From Candidatus Niyogibacteria bacterium (GTDB taxonomy: Bacteria > Patescibacteriota > Minisyncoccia > JACROR01), in NCBI GenBank assembly GCA_016214345.1, contig JACROR010000009.1, forward strand, positions 241 to 64,240: DNA of 64,000 nucleotides. Reading direction: 5' to 3'. The stretch's first letter is position 1; every line of letters begins with the position of its first letter. A program made the position numbers and the translations under genes. Under the pieces are notes generated by a model. The model ran no database searches. It saw nothing but the letters and a program-made list of their open reading frames with translations, and had not been told where the DNA came from. Below, piece after piece: positions 7,270 to 39,543 of the stretch.

Positions 7270-7506
7270 TTACTTAACGCCCAAAAGCTCCGACAACCGC
7301 GACTCGTCAAAACCAATTATCATTTCATCGTCTACAAAAATTACCGGCACGCCCATTTGGCCTGATTTTTCTATCATCTCGTCCCGTTTAGCCTCATCTA
7401 CCGAAACATCATGTTCCGTAAATTTTATTTTATGTTCCTTAAAAAACTCTTTTGCCATCCGGCAATAACCGCAAGTCGGCGTAGAATAAATGATAACTTT
7501 TGCCAT
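7270..7506 (-). CDS. glutaredoxin-like protein (NrdH/Grx fold)
   Basis: CGYC active site, 78 aa. Confidence 0.8.
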   Translation of the reverse strand: MAKVIIYSTPTCGYCRMAKEFFKEHKIKFTEHDVSVDEAKRDEMIEKSGQMGVPVIFVDDEMIIGFDESRLSELLGVK

Positions 7507-9066: not shown

Positions 9067-9261
9067 AAACGAGAGCAGCGAGTTTTGGACAGGGAGCAGG
9101 CAAACTGCTTTGCCTGCGTCGGGATTTGAAGGGTTGAGCTATACGCATTTATGCGCGGCGAAACCCCGGCCCAAAGGGAAATCCCGCCCTGGGCAAAACG
9201 AGAGCAGCGAGTTTTGGACAGGGAGCAGGCAAACTGCTTTGCCTGCGTCGGGATTTGAAGG
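9052..9261 (+). repeat. tandem direct repeat (2 x ~81 nt, period 129 nt) comprising the last ~15 nt of tRNA-Leu plus 66 nt of 3' flank
   Basis: 9052-9132 and 9181-9261 nearly identical (atcccgccctgggcaaaacgagagcagcgagttttggacagggagcaggcaaactgctttgcctgcgtcgggatttgaagg). Confidence 0.85.
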
Positions 9262-9318
9262 TCGGAGTCCGCCCAAGGCGGGCAGGCCGCCCTAGACACC
9301 AATTATATTTCAAATAAA

Positions 9319-16604: not shown

Positions 16605-17302
16605 CCATTGCCGGAGTTTCCGTCCAAGCGGCATTCATAGGATTTCTGCCGGCCATATTTTGGCTTTGGTTTTGGCTCAAAGAAGATCCGCATCCCGAGC
16701 CGCGAAAAGCATTACTGCTCGCTTTCGCAGGAGGAATGTTAATAGTTCCCGTGGCGCTATTTTTGGAAGAAGCCGCGTATAAAATAATGATAGAACTCGG
16801 CCTAGTGGCCGCCGGCGCCGTCAGTTCCTCAATATTTATAATCTGGGCGGCGATTGAAGAATACATGAAATACTTTGCCGCCAAGATGACGGTGCTCCGT
16901 CTCCCCGCCTTTGACGAACCCATAGACGCTCCGATATATTTGATAACCGCGGCAGTGGGATTCGCGTCCCTAGAAAATATTTTTTTCCTCTTCAAAACCA
17001 TTACGACCACTCCGGAACTAAGCTTAATTACCGGAGAAATGCGTTTTTTGGGCGCCACGCTCCTTCATATAGTAACCTCGGCCATAGTGGGCATGGCAAT
17101 CGCCCTTTCCTTTTTTCATCCGGAAAAACGCTCCCGAAATGTTTTGGGCGGCTTAATCGTCGCCGCTTTATTGCATGCGTGGTTTAACTTATTTATAATA
17201 AAGTCAGGCAGTGCAGGAGTCTTGCCGGTCTTCGCTTTAGTATGGCTGGGAGGCATAACGTTAATTCTCAGTTTAGAAAAAATTAAAAAAATAACTTCAT
17301 AA
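16586..17302 (+). CDS. PrsW-family intramembrane protease-like protein
   Basis: EEYMKY (EExxK), HIVTSAIVG and HAWFN motifs. Confidence 0.55.
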   Translation: MAQEALAIAGVSVQAAFIGFLPAIFWLWFWLKEDPHPEPRKALLLAFAGGMLIVPVALFLEEAAYKIMIELGLVAAGAVSSSIFIIWAAIEEYMKYFAAKMTVLRLPAFDEPIDAPIYLITAAVGFASLENIFFLFKTITTTPELSLITGEMRFLGATLLHIVTSAIVGMAIALSFFHPEKRSRNVLGGLIVAALLHAWFNLFIIKSGSAGVLPVFALVWLGGITLILSLEKIKKITS

Positions 17303-17304
17303 CC

Positions 17305-17760
17305 ATGACAAAAGACAAGAGATCGTTTTTTGAACGGCTAACGGGAAGCGTATCCGCGGACGAAGGAGAAATCAGCGCCCAGATTCATGATGGGAAAACC
17401 AAAAAAGAAGACTGGCTGGAAGGAACGGACGAAGGACAGCTAACAGTTGATGTCTTCCAAACGCCGGAGGAAATCATCATCCAATCCACCATTGCCGGAG
17501 TAAAACCGGAAGATTTGGACATCTCCATAACCCAAGATATGGTTACCATCAAAGGCACGCGCCGAAAAGATTTTGAAACCAAAGAAGACAATTATTATTA
17601 CCACGAACTCTATTGGGGAAAATTCGCCAGATCCATTCTCATTTCCGAAGAGATAGACGCGGACGAGGCCGAAGCGACCATCAAAAACGGCCTGCTTACC
17701 ATACGCCTGCCTAAAATTGACAAAGACAGAACGCATAAAATAAAAATAAAAAACTCTTAA
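17305..17760 (+). CDS. Hsp20/alpha-crystallin family small heat-shock protein
   Basis: ACD domain; GLLTIRLPK. Confidence 0.85.
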   Translation: MTKDKRSFFERLTGSVSADEGEISAQIHDGKTKKEDWLEGTDEGQLTVDVFQTPEEIIIQSTIAGVKPEDLDISITQDMVTIKGTRRKDFETKEDNYYYHELYWGKFARSILISEEIDADEAEATIKNGLLTIRLPKIDKDRTHKIKIKNS

Positions 17761-18033
17761 GTGGACGAGGAACTCAAAAAATTATTACAAAGAAACCTGG
17801 AAGTTTCGGAAGAAAGCCTGAAAATATTGAAAAAAATTAGCCGCGCCAGAATCATGGCCGCGGTTTACAATACTTTAAAATTGGCTATCATAATACTGCT
17901 CTCCGTTGGAGCGTATTATTACGTAGAACCCATGATCAATAACCTAATGGGCACCTTAAACCAATTGACCGGAGGCGCGCAATCCGCGCAACAGATCCAA
18001 GATTTGCTAAAACAATATAAATTGCCGAGGTAG
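17761..18033 (+). CDS. small hypothetical membrane protein (GTG start)
   Basis: One TM helix; stop inside 11-nt copy of tRNA-Phe 5' end. Confidence 0.4.
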   Translation: MDEELKKLLQRNLEVSEESLKILKKISRARIMAAVYNTLKLAIIILLSVGAYYYVEPMINNLMGTLNQLTGGAQSAQQIQDLLKQYKLPR

Positions 18034-18034
18034 C

Positions 18035-18166
18035 CCCTCACCCAGAATGGCATTATGCCGCGTGTTTTAACTGGATATTGCTTAACACAATTAAGTGCAC
18101 TAATATTTTAATAGTATTTATTTCTAGAGTGGCGACATAAAAACACAATGCCATTCTGGGTGAGGG
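18035..18166. mobile_element. MITE-like insertion (~132 bp) with 20-bp perfect TIRs and 11-bp TSD gccgaggtagc
   Basis: Left TIR 18035-18054 is the reverse complement of right TIR 18147-18166; direct repeats 18024-18034 and 18167-18177 (= first 11 nt of tRNA-Phe). Confidence 0.6.
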
Positions 18167-18238
18167 GCCGAGGTAGCTCAGTGGTAGAGCACAGGTTTGA
18201 AAAACCTGGTGTCGGGAGTTCGATCCTCCCCCTCGGCA
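18167..18238 (+). tRNA. tRNA-Phe(GAA)
   Basis: Acceptor gccgagg/cctcggc, anticodon stem caggt/acctg, loop ttGAAaa, T-arm gggagTTCGATCctccc. Confidence 0.9.
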
Positions 18239-18318
18239 CAACGAACTTGCCTGCCGATAGGCAGGCGCAGTGAGTTGCGGCGAGGGAGCAAATAAGCAAA
18301 CAGTTTTACAAAAATATT

Positions 18319-18390
18319 CTCCCCATAACTCAATGGATAGAGCGTCAGCCCTCTAAGCTGAACATGTGGGCTTCGCCCCCCACTTTATGC
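18319..18390 (+). pseudogene. degenerate tRNA-Arg(TCT)-like element (C33, 8-nt T-loop); acceptor complement located 100 nt downstream
   Basis: D-arm and anticodon arm (tcagc-ccTCTaa-gctga) resemble neighbouring tRNA-Arg; 5' acceptor ctcccca has no local partner but pairs with tggggag at 18490-18496. Confidence 0.3.
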
Positions 18391-18462
18391 GTCCCCGTAG
18401 TTCAATGGATAGAACGAGAGCCTTCTAAGCTCTAGATCGAGGTTCGATTCCTCGCGGGGGCA
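18391..18462 (+). tRNA. tRNA-Arg(TCT)
   Basis: Acceptor gtccccg/cgggggc (U2.G71), anticodon stem agagc/gctct, loop ctTCTaa, T-arm cgaggTTCGATTcctcg. Confidence 0.85.
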
Positions 18463-18503
18463 TATAAAGTGGGGGGTGAGAATTCCTACTGGGGAGATTA
18501 GAG

Positions 18504-18540
18504 GGGCGCGCAGCTCAGTGGTAGAGCGACTCGTTTATTC
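18504..18540 (+). pseudogene. 5' half-copy of tRNA-Val(TAC) (acceptor, D-arm, anticodon stem 5' side)
   Basis: gggcgcgcagctcagtggtagagcgactcgtttat matches 18557-18592 of full gene at 31/35 nt. Confidence 0.6.
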
Positions 18541-18556
18541 ACCCCGTTAGATATTT

Positions 18557-18631
18557 GGGCGTTTAGCTCAGTGGTAGAGCGACTCGTTTACACCGAGTAG
18601 GTCCGGGGTTCGATCCCTCGAACGCCCACCA
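18557..18631 (+). tRNA. tRNA-Val(TAC) with encoded CCA
   Basis: Acceptor gggcgtt/aacgccc, anticodon stem actcg/cgagt, loop ttTACac, T-arm cggggTTCGATCccctcg, CCA encoded. Confidence 0.9.
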
Positions 18632-18747
18632 CAATCAAACTTTCATTGCCCTTAAAGCCAAATTCGTTTGACGTATTTTTAAATCAGCTCATAATTGGGA
18701 TCAAACGAGTTATTTGAAAATATATCGCTCCCTGAAAGGAGAACGCC

Positions 18748-19314
18748 ATGGACATCAAAAATGTTCTGTCCGTCATTTCCGGAATATTATTCGCCGCGGC
18801 TTACATCCCGTACATACGAACGATTCTTAATGGTAAAACAAAACCAGCCAAAGCGTCCTGGATAATTTGGGCGAGCCTTGATGCCATTATTATTGCCGGC
18901 ATGATGGCGGAAAACTCCGTAAACTACCAAATAATCTGCGCCTTCCTGGGCTCAAGCGCGGTAGCTACCCTGTCATTAAAATACGGCATTCCGGGTTGGA
19001 GCGTACTTGATAAGGCCTGTTTTATCGGAGCAATTTTAGGAATAATCCTTTGGGGGACATTTAACAATCCCTTGTTTGGCATCATAATCAGCTTGGGCGT
19101 GATGTTTGTCGGCTCCGTACCCACTTTTGTGTCGGTATGGAAAGATCCGAGCCACGAAGATCGCTTTGCCTGGACGCTCTTTTGGCTATCTTGCGTAGTC
19201 GCAATTCCGGCGATTCCGCATTGGACCGTAGCGAATGCCGCCCAACCGCTGACCTTTTTCGCCATAGAAACCGTAATGATGTACATTTTATTTATTAAAA
19301 GTCCCGTGCGCTAA
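18748..19314 (+). CDS. polytopic membrane protein, unknown function
   Basis: SD aaaggaga; 5-6 TM helices. Confidence 0.5.
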   Translation: MDIKNVLSVISGILFAAAYIPYIRTILNGKTKPAKASWIIWASLDAIIIAGMMAENSVNYQIICAFLGSSAVATLSLKYGIPGWSVLDKACFIGAILGIILWGTFNNPLFGIIISLGVMFVGSVPTFVSVWKDPSHEDRFAWTLFWLSCVVAIPAIPHWTVANAAQPLTFFAIETVMMYILFIKSPVR

Positions 19315-19354
19315 TTGTGCCGGGATTTTTCTTTTTACAGCCGCTCAACAAAAC

Positions 19355-19681
19355 CTACAACGAAGGATCTTTAACCGGCGGAGCCGATAATACATCATTA
19401 AAGCGCTTCTCCCTGTCTCTAAGAACGCCGATAATTTTATCCAGCGTGTCGCGGTTAATGGCTTCCGTCTGGATTATCGGCCATACACTAATATTTTCAA
19501 AGGCCGCGGAAGTTTCATTCCAAAATATCCAAGCATCAAAAAACAAAACGCCGACCATCAATCCCAAAAGTACCGCCACCAAATAAATCCAAGATTTCTT
19601 GGACGATCCTCCAAATAACGCGATAAAAAAACCGTTGGCTTTTAAAATAATATTTTGTTTTAGGTTAATTAAACTGTTCAT
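19355..19681 (-). CDS. small membrane protein, last gene of pilus operon
   Basis: One TM helix; 4-nt gap to pilO. Confidence 0.4.
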   Translation of the reverse strand: MNSLINLKQNIILKANGFFIALFGGSSKKSWIYLVAVLLGLMVGVLFFDAWIFWNETSAAFENISVWPIIQTEAINRDTLDKIIGVLRDREKRFNDVLSAPPVKDPSL

Positions 19682-19685
19682 AAAA

Positions 19686-20222
19686 TTAAAAAGTGAAGCT
19701 CAACACTTTAACATCCAAACGGGCTTCCCAAGTTTCTTTTTTGTTGATTAACTGCGTACTTTTCTGGATGGTCGCCGTTTCAAACAAAACTTGATATGGA
19801 ATACTGCCGATCAGAGAAACGAAACGGCGAACGCCGTCAAAATTGCCGCGCGCTACCAAGCTAAAACTGGGCCCCAAATCTTTTTGATCGCGCGGAACAT
19901 TGGCATTGCCTACCTGTAACGAAACTCCGCTCAAATCCGCCACCCGTTCCAATTCCTTGATAAATTGCACCAAGTCTTTTTCACCGATAAAAGAATCGTT
20001 TATAGAGCCACGATCTTTCTCAATATCCTTCAACAAATCTTCCAAATTTTTAATACTATTCACTTTAAGGCGCACCTCGTCTAATTGATACCGTACCGAC
20101 AGAATCTGATTTTTTTCCATTAAAATCTTATTGAAAATAAACAGCCACGCCAAAACTGCCACAATATTTACCAGCAGCGCCACCACGCCTAAAATTAAAG
20201 TTTTTTTTATTTTATGGCTCAT
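19686..20222 (-). CDS. pilO: type IV pilus assembly protein PilO-like
   Basis: N-terminal TM plus coiled coil; follows pilM-pilN. Confidence 0.6.
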   Translation of the reverse strand: MSHKIKKTLILGVVALLVNIVAVLAWLFIFNKILMEKNQILSVRYQLDEVRLKVNSIKNLEDLLKDIEKDRGSINDSFIGEKDLVQFIKELERVADLSGVSLQVGNANVPRDQKDLGPSFSLVARGNFDGVRRFVSLIGSIPYQVLFETATIQKSTQLINKKETWEARLDVKVLSFTF

Positions 20223-38016: not shown

Positions 38017-39543
38017 ATGACATCCACCTTACTTGTCGTAGCGGTGGTTTCGATTTTGGCAGGAATTGCGGGAGGCTATCTATTGCGCCAGATTATAGCC
38101 AGGCAAAAACGCGACTCAATAGAATTAGACGTCAAGCAAATTCTTTTAGACGCCAAAACTGAAGCTCGCCAAACATTAGACGAAGCCAAGAAAAAAGCCG
38201 AGTCAGTAACGGAATCCGCCAAGCGCGATGAGCGCGAACGCGAATCTCAGATCAGAAAATTAGAGGAAAGAATCATTCAAAAAGAGGAGCTTGTGGAAAA
38301 GCGCCGTCTTGATGTTGATAAAGAACGAGAATCTCTGCAAGCGAAAGCCAACAAAATAAAACAGATAGAAAAAGAATTGGGAGATCTGGAAGAAAGCAAA
38401 AGATAAGAACTGGAGAAGGTCGCCCAACTCTCGGAAGAAGACGCGAAACACCAACTGCTCCAGAGTGTGGAACAAAAATACGAAGGAGATATTTTGGCGC
38501 GCATCCAAAAACTGGAGATCTTCGGCCAGGATAAATTGGAACAGCAAGCCAAAAATATTCTCGCCGCCGTCATACAGCGGCTGGCTTCTTCCACCGCCAC
38601 GGAAATAACCACTTCATCCGTCACCATCCCTTCTGACGACATCAAAGGGAAAATCATAGGAAAAGAAGGAAGAAATATCCGAGCGCTGGAACGCGCCACG
38701 GGAGTGGAAATCATCGTGGACGAAACTCCCGGAGAAGTGATAATTTCCTGTTTTGATCCCGTACGCAGACAAATCGCAAAGATCGCCCTGGGAAACCTGA
38801 TCGTAGACGGCAGAATACAACCGGCGCGCATTGAAGAAGCGGTGGAAAAATCCAAAGCCGCGGTGGAGAGCATGATCAAAGCGGCCGGAGAAGCCGCGGC
38901 TTACGAAATCGGCATCATGGATCTGGATCCGAGGCTTTTGATGATAATGGGACGGCTTAAATTCCGAACCAGCTATGGGCAAAACGTATTGCAACATTCC
39001 ATAGAAATGGCGCACATCGCGGGCATGCTCGCGTCCGAATTGGGCGCTGACGCGCAAATCGCCAAAAAAGGCGCGCTTTTGCACGACATAGGCAAGGCGG
39101 TATCTCATGAGATACAAGGCACGCACGTGGAAATCGGCCGACGCATTTTACAAAAATTCAACACCGATGAACGCATCATCAAAGCCATGCAATCGCACCA
39201 CGAAGAGTATCCTTTTGAAACGGTAGAGTCCATCATCGTGCTCGTGGCAGACGCGATATCCGCGGCCCGCCCGGGAGCGCGCAGAGACACGGTTGAAAAT
39301 TATTTAAAACGCTTGGAAGATTTGGAGCGCATAGCCACTTCTTTTGAAGGGGTGGAAAAAGCTTACGCCATACAAGCCGGAAGAGAAATCAGAATATTCG
39401 TAACACCGGAAAAAATTTCCGATCTGCAAATGAAAAATTTGGCGCGCGAGATCGCCAATCGCATTGAACAAGAACTGAAATATCCCGGAGAAATTAAGAT
39501 AAACGTTATCCGTGAAACCAGACTCGTGGAATATGCCAGATAA
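38017..39543 (+). CDS. rny: ribonuclease Y, interrupted by in-frame TAA at 38404-38406
   Basis: N-terminal TM plus coiled coil; KH (IGKEGRNIRALE) and HD (HSIEMAHIAG...LHDIGKA) domains. Confidence 0.8.

Follow-up and report, generated by a model that had tools for sequence, protein, structure and literature searches.

A tRNA-Arg(UCU) gene inserted with hairpin-forming arms into the T-loop of a resident tRNA-Arg(UCU) gene in a Niyogibacteria lineage

Elements that integrate into tRNA genes by means of tyrosine integrases reportedly use anticodon-loop and T-loop sublocations (Williams 2002, NAR). We examined a locus in the window (the whole 64-kb stretch of DNA that was analysed) where a 106-bp cassette carrying a tRNA gene interrupts the T-loop of a resident tRNA gene, together with a similar locus, L014, from Parcubacteria DG_74_3, where the anticodon loop is interrupted. 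Both resemble integrative elements in their site, in incoming DNA that is inferred to preserve tRNA function, and in the displaced old piece that remains. However, integrative elements carry only the 3' part of a tRNA gene (attP), leave a direct repeat, are kilobases long and lie next to an integrase, whereas the cassette supplies a whole tRNA gene, keeps both old halves, measures 106 bp and is bounded by no direct repeat. No integrase was found within about 25 kb of the insert, the sole tyrosine recombinase of the window (45006-45926) being XerC/D-like and 26 kb away, and the neighbouring genes are conserved housekeeping genes that are also found where relatives lack the insert.

The REPINs, PATEs and IS200/IS605 elements associated with HUH Y1 transposases share with the cassette a length of about 100 bp, a hairpin-forming inverted pair around a spacer, the absence of target duplication, and complementarity to the target, comparable to the guide-target pairing of IS608. 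They insert immediately 3' of a short fixed target, a preference that the cassettes may share, as judged from two cases only. In the cassette, by contrast, the spacer is a tRNA gene, only single copies were found, and the target complement is placed at the right end, not at the foot of a left-end hairpin. IS200/IS605 elements normally have subterminal hairpins, not terminal inverted repeats, which counts against a relationship with HUH elements. MITEs (Correia elements, RUP) likewise have terminal inverted repeats, are non-coding and about 100 bp long, and their long-hairpin transcripts are potential RNase III substrates, but the cassette made no target-site duplication, was not multi-copy in the data searched, and has a gene aboard that is inferred to be functional.

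Archaeal and eukaryal tRNA introns and split or permuted tRNAs are similar in having an intervening sequence in a tRNA loop, non-canonical positions included, and a helix joining the halves. The cassette differs from bulge-helix-bulge introns in lacking that motif, in its bacterial host, in its decaying 'exons', and in that the intervening sequence is itself the putative functional product. An unusual abundance of tRNA introns characterizes Patescibacteria, some of them at position 35/36, where the L014 insert also lies (PMC13011429). The group I tRNA introns of this phylum also interrupt tRNA loops, with 35/36 a reportedly enriched position; the inserts described here, in contrast, yielded no ribozyme core (106-120 nt, no Rfam hit), and the host tRNA would be replaced, not restored by splicing. 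Finally, the leader-trailer stalks of rRNA operons, processed by RNase III, are long flanking helices around a stable RNA, but such a helix is unusual for bacterial tRNAs, and that of the cassette is probably a by-product of the inserted element, not an evolved processing signal. No published description of tRNA-in-tRNA nesting was found in the literature on nested or interrupted tRNA genes, on leader-trailer helices in Patescibacteria, or on RAYT/REPIN elements and tRNA.

Nesting of one tRNA-Arg(UCU) gene within another

The stretch 18319-18497 corresponds to a resident tRNA-Arg(UCU) gene whose T-loop is interrupted, between positions 57 and 58, by an insert of 106 nt (18376-18481). This insert consists of a 15-nt left arm, a canonical tRNA-Arg(UCU) without encoded CCA, and a 19-nt right arm. 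The features of the tRNA cluster are as follows.

18167..18239, + strand: tRNA-Phe(GAA) (ARAGORN; Rfam 72.7 bits); it opens the Phe-Arg-Val cluster and is given for context only
18319..18375, + strand: outer tRNA-Arg(UCU) putative pseudogene, 5' part, positions 1-57 (orthologue alignment; partial Rfam match)
18376..18390, + strand: cassette left arm, CCCCCCACTTTATGC; 18376-18388 is a perfect 13-nt inverted-repeat arm; missing in L083, L095 and L096
18391..18462, + strand: inner tRNA-Arg(UCU) (ARAGORN tRNA-Arg(tct); Rfam RF00005, 69 bits)
18463..18481, + strand: cassette right arm, TATAAAGTGGGGGGTGAGA; 18464-18476 is the perfect arm
18482..18497, + strand: outer tRNA-Arg putative pseudogene, 3' part, positions 58-73 (pairing with 18366-18370 and 18319-18325; alignment with L083 and L095)
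18504..18537, + strand: tRNA-Val(UAC) 5' fragment, positions 1-35; it stops in the anticodon loop and starts exactly at the ancestral tRNA-Val start
18538..18556, + strand: 19-nt filler, TTCACCCCGTTAGATATTT, abutting the complete tRNA-Val; a C-run followed by A/T-rich sequence, resembling a cassette left arm
18557..18631, + strand: complete tRNA-Val(UAC) with encoded CCA (ARAGORN; Rfam 69.4 bits); its 3' flank is orthologous to that of the L095 tRNA-Val

The canonical tRNA-Arg(TCT) at 18391-18462, already recognized in a preliminary description of the locus, was confirmed by ARAGORN and by an Rfam covariance scan. Its 69 bits compare with an RF00005 threshold of 29 and cover model positions 1-71, a full cloverleaf, so that the criterion for a canonical elongator tRNA was met. 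ARAGORN found no other tRNA-Arg(UCU) in the 64-kb window; because only 64 kb of the genome is visible, a second one elsewhere cannot be excluded. The AGA codon accounted for 19 of the 97 Arg codons in seven sampled genes of the window. The inner gene is presumed to be the working copy, an inference made from sequence alone, without expression or processing data. The host is a groundwater bacterium with a tiny genome, and the identical nested arrangement was present in L001, an independent Logan assembly of SRR12113407.

The 5' part of the outer copy comprises the acceptor 5' strand, the D arm, the anticodon arm (loop CCTCTAA, with C33), the T-stem 5' strand and the T-loop TTCG; the 3' part comprises the T-loop ATT, the T-stem 3' strand CCTAC, the acceptor 3' strand TGGGGAG and the discriminator A. 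The acceptor strand CTCCCCA (18319-18325) was perfectly paired with TGGGGAG (18490-18496), and GTGGG (18366-18370) with CCTAC (18485-18489), which abuts the outer acceptor 3' strand. It follows that the T-stem of the outer copy is intact and that its T-loop holds the insert. Rfam returned only a partial tRNA match for the outer copy (18325-18384, 22.9 bits). After deletion of 18376-18481, ARAGORN recognized the outer copy as tRNA-Arg(tct) at a relaxed threshold but rejected it at the default; with the extra C18371 also removed, it was called at the default threshold. No CCA follows the 3' part, the flank being ATTAGAG, likewise in L095, while L083 encodes CCA.

Comparison with relatives at about 82-86% nucleotide identity showed that one tRNA gene was inserted into another. 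L083, L095 and L096 carry an uninterrupted outer tRNA-Arg(UCU) at the same position, with the T-loop TTCGATT and no insert, in the same gene order (PrsW and HSP20 with 90-91% protein identity, the aaRS with about 87%). Against these empty sites, the ancestral TTCG/ATT was seen to be split cleanly, with zero duplicated bases. The three orthologues were identical to one another (72/72), and tRNA-Phe was 100% identical over 72-73 nt among the window, L083 and L095. The spliced outer copy of the window, in contrast, was 94.5% identical to the orthologue and showed G10A, U33C, A51G and the extra T-loop C at 18371, changes that include the conserved G10 and U33. Since it has changed while the orthologues in L083, L095 and L096 remained invariant, we regard it as a decaying pseudogene; it meets the criteria for a tRNA pseudogene (intact orthologues, disruption, changes at conserved positions), its loss of function being inferred, not demonstrated. 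The inner gene was 73% identical overall to the outer one, and the two differed by compensatory changes in the stems of the acceptor, D and anticodon arms. It was closer (83%) to the tRNA-Arg(UCU) resident in L084, a Niyogibacteria genome that is more distant.

These results bear on several further claims of the preliminary description. An upstream tRNA-like sequence with a D arm and an anticodon arm (ccTCTaa, C33), and a complement of its ctcccca (tggggag, 18490-18496) beyond the embedded tRNA, were both confirmed. The T-region had been called aberrant, the GTGGG/CCTAC pairing of the intact T-stem having been missed. Of the origins proposed, insertion of one tRNA gene into another was upheld by the comparison of syntenic loci (the empty sites in L083, L095 and L096), whereas duplication of one within the other was not (73% inner/outer against 83% inner/L084). 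A pre-tRNA with an unusual leader-trailer helix correctly describes the necessary transcript, but this is a consequence of the insertion and not an alternative to it. Two adjacent, independent tRNA-Arg genes in relatives, an arrangement that would have refuted the nesting, were not seen; the relatives have one uninterrupted gene.

The cassette arms and their helix

The arms contain a perfect inverted repeat of 13 nt, CCCCCCACTTTAT (18376-18388) and ATAAAGTGGGGGG (18464-18476). The preliminary description had placed a 14-bp repeat at 18377-18390 and 18461-18474; the repeat itself was real, but the string given for its right arm, cataaagtgggggg, was not found, the actual sequence being catATaaagtgggggg. 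When G.U pairs were included, the helix reached 18 bp (18372-18389 with 18463-18480) and stacked on the 7-bp acceptor stem of the inner tRNA across a single C(-1).A73 mismatch. The acceptor extension claimed earlier is therefore real, although at about 25 bp it is longer than the approximately 21 bp proposed. The terminal TGAG of the right arm pairs with TTCG of the outer T-loop.

The arm helix is far beyond chance expectation, as judged by fold z-scores and duplex energy. RNA folding gave z-scores of -8.2 for 18370-18482 and -5.8 for 18310-18505, no shuffled sequence being equally stable; the DNA fold of the cassette helix gave z = -5.3, and the helix was retained when folded in a 481-nt context. 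The leader-trailer duplex had an energy of -37 kcal/mol, compared with a median of -6.4 for 88 tRNAs from the window and the fetched loci. Elsewhere in the window, a tRNA-Gly(tcc) gene (41050-41120) that is not nested has a 12-bp flanking inverted repeat.

A second nested locus and one-sided scars

L014, drawn from a set of 80 GTDB loci around the class I aaRS, contains a tRNA-Ser(UGA) with arms of like design within the anticodon loop (35/36) of a resident tRNA-Ser(UGA). The inner tRNA-Ser(tga) is clamped by CCCCGTAGAAAGGC on the left and TTTCTTACGGGG on the right, and deletion of the 120-nt insert restored an outer tRNA-Ser(tga) that ARAGORN could call. In L098, whose RecG has 95.5% nucleotide identity to that of L014, the outer tRNA-Ser is intact and the site empty; comparison of the two revealed no target duplication. 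The outer copy of L014 was damaged (T31 lost; C61T, breaking G53-C61; one further change), whereas the neighbouring tRNA-Ser(gct) was 100% conserved between L014 and L098. The inner tRNA-Ser was 66% identical to the intact outer-type gene of L098 and 81% to the tRNA-Ser of L099. In the 80-locus set, the nearest representatives were at most 62% identical and lacked the downstream Phe-Arg-Val cluster, which made them uninformative about the window locus.

When the two cassettes were compared, the left arms measured 14-15 nt and the right arms 19 nt, the outer ends were a C-run and a G-run, and the right ends read TGAGA in the window and TCGAGA in L014, that is, T(C)GAGA. The insertion sites, TTCG^A in the window and CTTG^A in L014, conform to YTYG^A, although n is only 2. 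In both cases four nucleotides of the right end pair with four nucleotides of the target. Estimates made post hoc put the probability by chance at about 6e-4 for finding this pairing twice and at about 7e-4 for the end motif that the cassettes have in common. The arms thus have a common design and common end motifs, but their sequence likeness is too low to prove common descent.

A more complicated history is visible at the neighbouring tRNA-Val. The Val 5' fragment is separated from the outer tRNA-Arg by a 6-nt spacer conserved with L095 and has C, not the conserved U, at position 8. It was 91% identical to 18557-18590 of the complete tRNA-Val (34 nt, with a 26-nt exact repeat) but only about 70% identical to the L095 tRNA-Val, which implies a more involved history than one cassette insertion. 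The filler TTCACCCCGTTAGATATTT and the L014 left arm CCCCGTAGAAAGGC have CCCCGT(T)AGA in common, while no right arm matching the filler was present. The fragment may possibly represent a partly resolved third case. CCCCGT(T)AGA was also considered as a dispersed repeat and rejected, its occurrences in L026, L067 and L084 being at about the chance rate; those inspected lay either around the start codon of the aaRS gene or in intergenic DNA without any relation to it. Another one-sided scar, a tRNA-Leu 3' fragment, was seen in L099, and the L083 tRNA-Val diverges after GGACGGTTAGCT.

Searches for further copies of the arms or the cassette gave none in the 64-kb window and none in 93 loci, nor were further nested cases found in the more distant relatives L100-L103. 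Among JGI metagenome contigs, the arm search returned only L092, where two hairpins carry the 12-mer but no tRNA is present, and L093, a microsatellite of TA units, both of which are likely due to chance. Support for a cassette 'family' thus comes from two full cases plus two one-sided scars among about 110 tRNAs examined. In viral contigs, neither the arm pair nor the inner or outer tRNA had a match, and the matches of 17000-20000 to phage records, in the rows listed, ran through the tRNA-Val gene only. A 36-nt core of the L014 inner tRNA-Ser occurred in two IMG/VR contigs with large tRNA arrays (L104 and L105), without arms. A phage origin of the inner tRNAs was rejected, the viral look-alikes being arm-less and differing in the acceptor, variable and T arms. 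No RNA family other than tRNA reached a meaningful Rfam score in 17000-20000 or in the whole window. The downstream elements of about 110-150 nt (window 9068-9300 and 44625-44728) were weighed as possible cassette kin and kept separate, the T-loop theme being common to both and the architecture different.

Proposed origin and rival explanations

The explanation that we consider likely is the insertion of a cassette of a recurrent kind, with replacement of the resident gene. The comparison with relatives shows that the ancestral locus had the order tRNA-Phe, tRNA-Arg(UCU), tRNA-Val(UAC), and that in this Niyogibacteria lineage a 106-bp cassette entered the resident tRNA-Arg(UCU) between G57 and A58 without target-site duplication. 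The cassette is self-contained, bringing a complete tRNA-Arg(UCU) of a different sequence type, with arms that prolong the acceptor stem of the inner tRNA into a single helix. As inferred from its sequence, the interrupted resident gene has lost its function and is now decaying. By inference, the inner gene would supply tRNA-Arg(UCU), presumably transcribed with tRNA-Phe and tRNA-Val. The leader-trailer helix would first need opening or cleavage, for which an RNase specific for double strands (RNase III, for example) is a plausible candidate; RNase P and 3' trimming would then act and CCA would be added by the CCA-adding enzyme, whose gene is present at 43042-44544. The source would be a recurrent kind of hairpin-ended tRNA cassette in Paceibacteria, inferred to land 3' of YTYG in exposed loops of tRNA genes; a hit on a single-copy essential tRNA would be survivable only with cognate cargo, and the Arg-in-Arg and Ser-in-Ser cases would thereby be explained. 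One-sided scars, of which the Val 5' fragment next door is an example, would result from later recombination between inner and outer genes.

As the mover we favour, as no more than a possibility, an HUH/Y1 (IS200/RAYT-like) transposase acting in trans by single-strand hairpin 'peel-and-paste'; this is inferred without biochemistry, and the mechanism of insertion has not been shown. A Y1_Tnp or REP-associated-transposase-like gene is located at 41860-42597; it scored 36.5 bits with Pfam and 31.5 bits with the NCBIfam model for REP-associated transposases, the latter short of the cut-off. A 17-nt hairpin repeat occurs close to it in five exact copies. Gene and repeats may provide circumstantial support for an HUH mover, but the cassette arms are unlike the 17-nt repeats that flank the gene.

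An unlikely alternative is a one-off horizontal acquisition without any mobile element, in which a foreign Paceibacteria tRNA-Arg(UCU) was joined into a T-loop break by illegitimate recombination; the native flanks would already have been a processing helix, the cognate match would reflect survivorship, and L014 would be an unrelated coincidence. In its favour, the inner tRNAs are of types resident in more distant relatives (Arg 83% to L084; Ser 81% to L099), the un-nested tRNA-Gly(tcc) with its flanking repeat shows that such flanks can be native, the scars (Val 5' in the window, Leu 3' in L099) fit homology-anchored illegitimate recombination, no extra cassette copies were found in the searches given above, and the adjoining type IV pilus genes are compatible with DNA uptake. 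It leaves unexplained, however, what the two events have in common (arm lengths, C- and G-run ends, T(C)GAGA, YTYG^A, and pairing of the right end with the target), and both breaks fall exactly in hairpin loops. The insertion was clean, with target bases neither lost nor duplicated, a regularity greater than random end joining predicts. A still weaker candidate, which we judge very unlikely, is an intron-like or split-tRNA joint, in which RNase P and RNase Z excise the inner tRNA and the outer halves, held by the helix, are ligated or work as a split tRNA, both products being functional. The arms would keep the two outer halves aligned with each other, full pairing persists in the acceptor and T stems of the outer gene, and the richness of Patescibacteria in tRNA introns (PMC13011429) counts in its favour. 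Against it stand fresh damage at near-universal positions in both outer genes while uninterrupted orthologues are invariant, and close relatives that live without the insert. Excision by RNase P and RNase Z would, moreover, leave the arms in the T-loop or anticodon. No bulge-helix-bulge, which would require two 3-nt bulges a 4-bp helix apart at the junctions, was present. The MFE and centroid structures both place the 5' insertion point within the continuous 18-bp helix and the 3' point at the base of that helix, beyond which follows an internal loop with 1 nt on one strand and 4 nt on the other. Neither group I (RF00028) nor any other ribozyme was found up to E=10 in 17000-20000, the tRNA alone taking up 72 of the 106 nt of the insert, and no EndA-like enzyme was found by Pfam among 44 of the 54 window ORFs of at least 110 aa and two shorter ones.

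Two remaining readings are all but excluded. Local duplication, by which the inner gene arose from the outer by intragenic duplication and divergence, is favoured by the same anticodon and by 83% identity across 40 nt in the 5' half. Over their whole length, however, the genes are just 73% identical, with multiple compensatory stem differences, and the insertion is later than the split from the relatives of about 82-86% nucleotide identity, whose outer gene is unchanged. In L014, the inner gene shares just 66% identity with the intact gene of outer type in L098, and the arms are left unexplained. An assembly artefact, that is, a chimera of two strains with different tRNA-Arg alleles, was considered since the sequence comes from a MAG and the tRNA cluster is a place where Logan contigs end. 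Those breaks occur at the Val repeat (26-nt exact; 34 nt at 91%) and not at the Arg junctions, and two assemblers gave the identical nested structure (the window and L001). Exact matches between inner and outer genes are short, the longest found by eye being 14 nt (TTCGATTCCT is another), below a typical assembly k-mer. A chimera would switch alleles, not nest them with perfect inverted arms, and the same architecture recurs in L014, a genome from an unrelated study.

If the preferred reading of a cassette insertion is correct, the locus represents a route for the in-place swap of an essential tRNA gene. Members of the Candidate Phyla Radiation have minimal genomes with largely single-copy tRNA genes, and disruption of such a gene should therefore be lethal; here the resident would have been killed and a working cognate supplied in the same step. 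Two independent full cases with empty-site controls, together with half-gene scars beside other tRNAs, suggest a recurrent process and not an accident. A bolder reading, which we consider less likely than not, is that of an undescribed class of self-compensating mobile element in Patescibacteria with only a tRNA as cargo: a hairpin-ended cassette of about 100-120 bp that would enter YTYG^A loops of the cognate resident tRNA and replace the function it destroyed. Were this so, it would drive the in-situ swap of essential single-copy tRNA genes for foreign versions, with nested genes and half-gene scars as successive stages. Mobile cassettes of this sort would constitute a new minimal selfish element, parallel to tRNA-restoring islands and self-splicing introns, with a third solution, that of carrying a spare.

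Because standard tRNA finders report the inner gene only, nested events are invisible in annotations, and hidden nested tRNAs could bias inferences on tRNA gene phylogeny and horizontal transfer. The forced leader-trailer helix also offers a natural setting in which to see how bacterial RNase P and the 3' processing enzymes deal with a fully paired precursor. The tRNA-Phe(GAA) at 18167..18239 is likely cotranscribed with the rest of the cluster; a weak promoter-like site was observed at 18082-18109.

A tRNA-Arg gene inside the T-loop of another tRNA gene

The segment 18319-18375 holds the acceptor strand, D arm, anticodon arm (loop CCTCTAA, giving C33) and T-stem 5' strand of a tRNA, and Rfam returns a partial match (22.9 bits). 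CCTAC-TGGGGAG-A (18485-18497), 3' of the inner gene, pairs in register with these upstream strands, which completes the outer tRNA and puts the inner gene with its arms inside the outer T-loop. The preliminary description had proposed a tRNA within a tRNA, which held, the outer T-stem and acceptor both closing around the inner gene. It had also reported inverted repeats flanking the inner tRNA; these are present, but their strings and positions as first written were slightly off.

Features of the nested locus
18319-18375 and 18482-18497, split outer tRNA-Arg(UCU)
18319-18325, CTCCCCA, outer acceptor 5' strand, pairing with TGGGGAG
18366-18370, GTGGG, outer T-stem 5' strand, pairing with CCTAC
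18376-18388, CCCCCCACTTTAT, and 18464-18476, ATAAAGTGGGGGG, perfect inverted-repeat arms
18748-19314, 188-aa ORF
Near the tRNA cluster, genes for TsaD, class I aaRS, PrsW, HSP20 and type IV pilus

The inner gene (18391-18462) is a canonical tRNA-Arg(UCU), called by both ARAGORN and Rfam (69 bits). With G.U pairs counted, its arms form an 18-bp helix (18372-18389 with 18463-18480) that stacks onto the 7-bp inner acceptor stem, a single C.A mismatch lying between them. Shuffled controls fold far less stably (18370-18482, z = -8.2; 18310-18505, z = -5.8). Across 88 tRNAs of the window and the fetched loci, the leader-trailer duplex energy has a median of -6.4 kcal/mol, and the -37 kcal/mol of this gene lies far outside the rest. 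RNase P and 3' maturation could proceed only once the unusually long paired leader-trailer stem of the precursor had been opened or cut; this need rests on established tRNA processing, not on data here. ARAGORN found no other UCU-anticodon gene in the 64-kb window, the rest of the genome being outside view, and in seven sampled genes 19 of the 97 arginine codons are AGA. tRNA genes without an encoded CCA need a CCA-adding enzyme, and one is encoded at 43042-44544. That the inner gene is the working tRNA-Arg(UCU) is inferred from sequence, without expression data.

The outer tRNA is uninterrupted at the same place in three syntenic contigs, L083 (Logan SRR22387960) and L095 and L096 (Hainich groundwater), where the outer-type Arg gene reads CTCCCCATAGCTCAATGGATAGAGCGTCAGCCTTCTAAGCTGAACATGTAGGTTCGATTCCTACTGGGGAGA. 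The shared gene order is aaRS, PrsW, HSP20, a 90-aa ORF, tRNAs and the 188-aa ORF, with protein identities of 90-91% for PrsW and HSP20 (PrsW 90% in L083) and about 87% for aaRS, and nucleotide identities of 81-86% for these genes. The L095 cluster runs Phe, Arg, a 6-nt spacer and Val. Over the 72-73 nt compared, all three genomes have a 100% identical tRNA-Phe, and the Arg genes of the two relatives compared are identical at 72/72 positions. Alignment to the relatives places the 106-nt insert (18376-18481) between T-loop G57 and A58 (TTCG^ATT), with no target base duplicated or lost. The window's outer gene differs from the relatives by G10A, which disrupts a D-stem pair, U33C, A51G and one extra C; U33 is a near-universal tRNA base. 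When spliced, the outer sequence is called by ARAGORN only with a relaxed threshold. Given the intact orthologues at this site, the window-specific changes and this relaxed-only call, the outer gene is the orthologous resident gene, now drifting and, as inferred from sequence without expression data, inactivated. All data come from metagenome assemblies; the nested structure is reproduced base for base in L001, a Logan contig of run SRR12113407, which makes an assembler-specific artefact unlikely. The product of the 188-aa ORF matches identically a protein from an NCBI MAG labelled Candidatus Niyogibacteria bacterium, and among GTDB representatives the nearest ones belong to Patescibacteria.

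The Phe-Arg spacer is highly unstable among close relatives: it measures 13 nt in L083, 50 nt in L095 (3677-3726), where 7 nt of the Phe 3' end recur, and 79 nt in the window (18240-18318), where it contains a GC-rich hairpin, GCCTGCC-GAT-AGGCAGGC. In L083 (5270-5308), tRNA-Val starts normally with GGACGGTTAGCT and continues as unrelated sequence (TCTGCCCGAGGCAGACCCGCC...) shortly before the contig ends; another insertion, in the D-loop, is conceivable.

A second nested tRNA, shared design and one-sided scars

A flank screen of all tRNAs in the fetched loci yielded a second case, with an empty counterpart in a close relative.

Features of the second case
L014:237-414, minus strand, nested tRNA-Ser(UGA) of Parcubacteria bacterium DG_74_3
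L014, inner tRNA-Ser(UGA) clamp, CCCCGTAGAAAGGC / TTTCTTACGGGG
L098:2022-2110, minus strand, empty site with intact outer tRNA-Ser(UGA)

An outer class II tRNA, the resident tRNA-Ser(UGA), holds the inner Ser gene in its anticodon loop (35/36); removal of the 120-nt insert restores an ARAGORN call of tRNA-Ser(tga). L098, whose RecG gene shares 95.5% nucleotide identity with that of L014, has the outer gene intact, and the two genomes match at 100% in the neighbouring tRNA-Ser(gct). Compared with the intact L098 gene, the outer copy in L014 has lost T31 and carries one further change and C61T, which destroys the conserved G53-C61 pair. The inner Ser gene shares 66% identity with the outer type but 81% with the resident Ser(UGA) of L099, a 73% relative. 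With its empty site, outer decay and foreign-type inner gene, L014 repeats the history of the window: a foreign tRNA of the cognate type has entered a loop, and the resident copy is decaying.

Design of the two cassettes (feature; window, Arg; L014, Ser)
Left arm; 15 nt; 14 nt
Right arm; 19 nt; 19 nt
Insertion point; TTCG^A; CTTG^A
Right end; TGAGA; TCGAGA
Target-site duplication; none; none

In both cassettes a C-run pairs with a G-run at the outer arm ends, the sequence next to the tRNA is A/T-rich, and a right-end (U/C)GAG pairs with the four target bases left of the insert. Post hoc, the chance of this pairing in both cases is estimated at about 6e-4 and that of the shared right-end motif at about 7e-4. 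These regularities are read as signs of one shared mechanism and, probably, one kind of element, which two cases cannot prove. The census is small: about 110 tRNAs gave two full cases and two scars.

Features of the scars
18504-18537, 34-nt 5' fragment of tRNA-Val(UAC), positions 1-35
18538-18556, 19-nt filler TTCACCCCGTTAGATATTT between the Val fragment and the complete Val gene, resembling the cassette left arm
L099:7725-7766, minus strand, Leu scar: complete tRNA-Leu(GAG), 14 nt, then a 30-nt 3' fragment

The Val fragment occupies the exact start point of the ancestral Val gene, the spacer after Arg being conserved with L095. The fragment shares 91% identity with the full Val gene, has C at conserved position 8 and ends at anticodon-loop position 35. 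The complete Val gene adjoins the filler, with a 3' flank orthologous to the one behind L095 Val. We infer that 18504-18556 could be a partly resolved cassette insertion, as would arise if a nested Val cassette lost its right arm together with the outer 3' half when the inner and outer 3' ends, being similar, recombined or slipped. Because the fragment matches the new Val better than L095 Val, more than one step may have been involved. The 34-nt Val repeat (26 nt exact) coincides with the ends of Logan contigs L001 and L002. The L099 arrangement mirrors the Val scar: its fragment comprises the T arm and acceptor strand of a different Leu-type tRNA, the acceptor strand matching window-type Leu(GAG), and it looks like the scar of a replacement.

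Possible origins of the cassettes

No direct evidence bears on the insertion mechanism, and readings rest on elimination and consistency. Duplication of the outer Arg gene was rejected: inner and outer genes are 73% identical with compensatory changes across several stems, and the inner gene is closer (83%) to the resident tRNA-Arg(UCU) of L084, a more distant Niyogibacteria genome. The inner gene is foreign to the locus. An integrase-type event is argued against by the lack of a direct repeat and of a nearby integrase, and a classical TIR transposon by the lack of target duplication and of any other copy in the window, viral contigs or JGI metagenome contigs. An intron is disfavoured by the decaying "exons" and the absence of a bulge-helix-bulge motif or ribozyme. 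HUH/Y1 single-strand hairpin movement fits the clean insertion 3' of a short motif, the hairpin form, the target-complementary tetranucleotide and targets in loops that would be single-stranded in extruded DNA.

Features of the candidate mover
41860-42597, minus strand, Y1_Tnp / REP-associated tyrosine transposase-like protein (245 aa, HUH motif)
41625, 42586, 43011, 44976 and 45972 (41.6-46.0 kb), five exact copies of the 17-nt hairpin repeat CGGAAATGGAGTTTCCG

The repeats bracket this gene and a XerC/D-like recombinase gene (45006-45926). Since they do not resemble the cassette arms, the link remains circumstantial; an HUH/Y1 transposase is a possible mover, without biochemical data. Survivorship is the simplest explanation of why Arg sits in Arg and Ser in Ser: a single-copy tRNA gene could be interrupted without killing the cell only by a cassette with the same tRNA.

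The cassette resembles tRNA-targeting integrative elements in the loops used and in a "repair what you break" logic, HUH-mobilised hairpin elements in size, hairpin form, absent duplication and guide-like pairing, and tRNA introns, which in Patescibacteria include position 35/36 (PMC13011429), in interrupting loops. These three are the closest analogies. The locus fails defining tests of integrative elements and of tRNA introns; for HUH-mobilised elements the hairpin and the absent duplication fit, the target motif rests on two cases only, and the hairpin repeats around the Y1 gene differ from the cassette arms. No description of a tRNA gene nested in a cognate tRNA gene was found in the literature searched. 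The locus is likely a case in which mobile or foreign DNA entered a tRNA gene and made good the lost function, the function being inferred; a distinct family of self-compensating tRNA cassettes is a realistic but less likely possibility.

Other repeats and structures in the window and its relatives

One 17-nt repeat copy falls within the yraN coding sequence, and a palindrome, GTTTCATGTGAAAC, recurs four to five times in 41.8-45.0 kb. On the JGI metagenome contig L092 (51-150), the stems of two hairpins, GTCCCCCACTTTATAAAGTGGGGGAC and a variant, contain the exact 12-mer of the window arms, and no tRNA lies between them; chance or a related hairpin repeat could explain them. The window tRNA-Gly(UCC) (41020-41155, minus strand) has a perfect 12-bp flanking inverted repeat, GGATCCCGTTTA / TAAACGGGATCC, with asymmetric arms (19 nt upstream, 7 nt downstream), and is not nested in another tRNA; its distance to tRNA-Pro(UGG) is 171 nt, versus 11 nt in the fetched locus L021.

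An undescribed structured element of about 110-150 nt lies 3' of several tRNA genes.

Locations of the post-tRNA element
Window 9068-9300, plus strand
Window 44609-44728, minus strand
L084:6632-6789 and 7352-7500
L102:378-545

The element comprises, in order, a conserved hairpin AGCRAGCAAAYTGYTTTGCYYGC, the reverse complement of its own tRNA's T-loop and T-stem, and variable hairpins, and ends with the last 16-18 nt of the tRNA repeated in direct orientation, a repeat that the second tRNA-Leu copy (9197-9300) lacks. The T-loop/T-stem complement covaries with its tRNA in all four aligned copies. Of 25 predicted pairs in the element, 10 show compensatory changes. A covariance model scores five copies at 69-88 bits, and the element has no Rfam match.

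At L067:5862-5986, a 13-nt sequence, ACCCCGTTAGAGA, upstream of a class I aaRS gene is the exact reverse complement of its codons 6-10 (TCTCTAACGGGGT); long-range pairing might sequester the aaRS start region. RNase Y (38017-39543) is apparently encoded in two adjacent ORFs, 38017-38406 for the N-terminal part and 38467-39543 for the KH and HD domains, which a frameshift, an error in sequencing or a true gene split could each explain.
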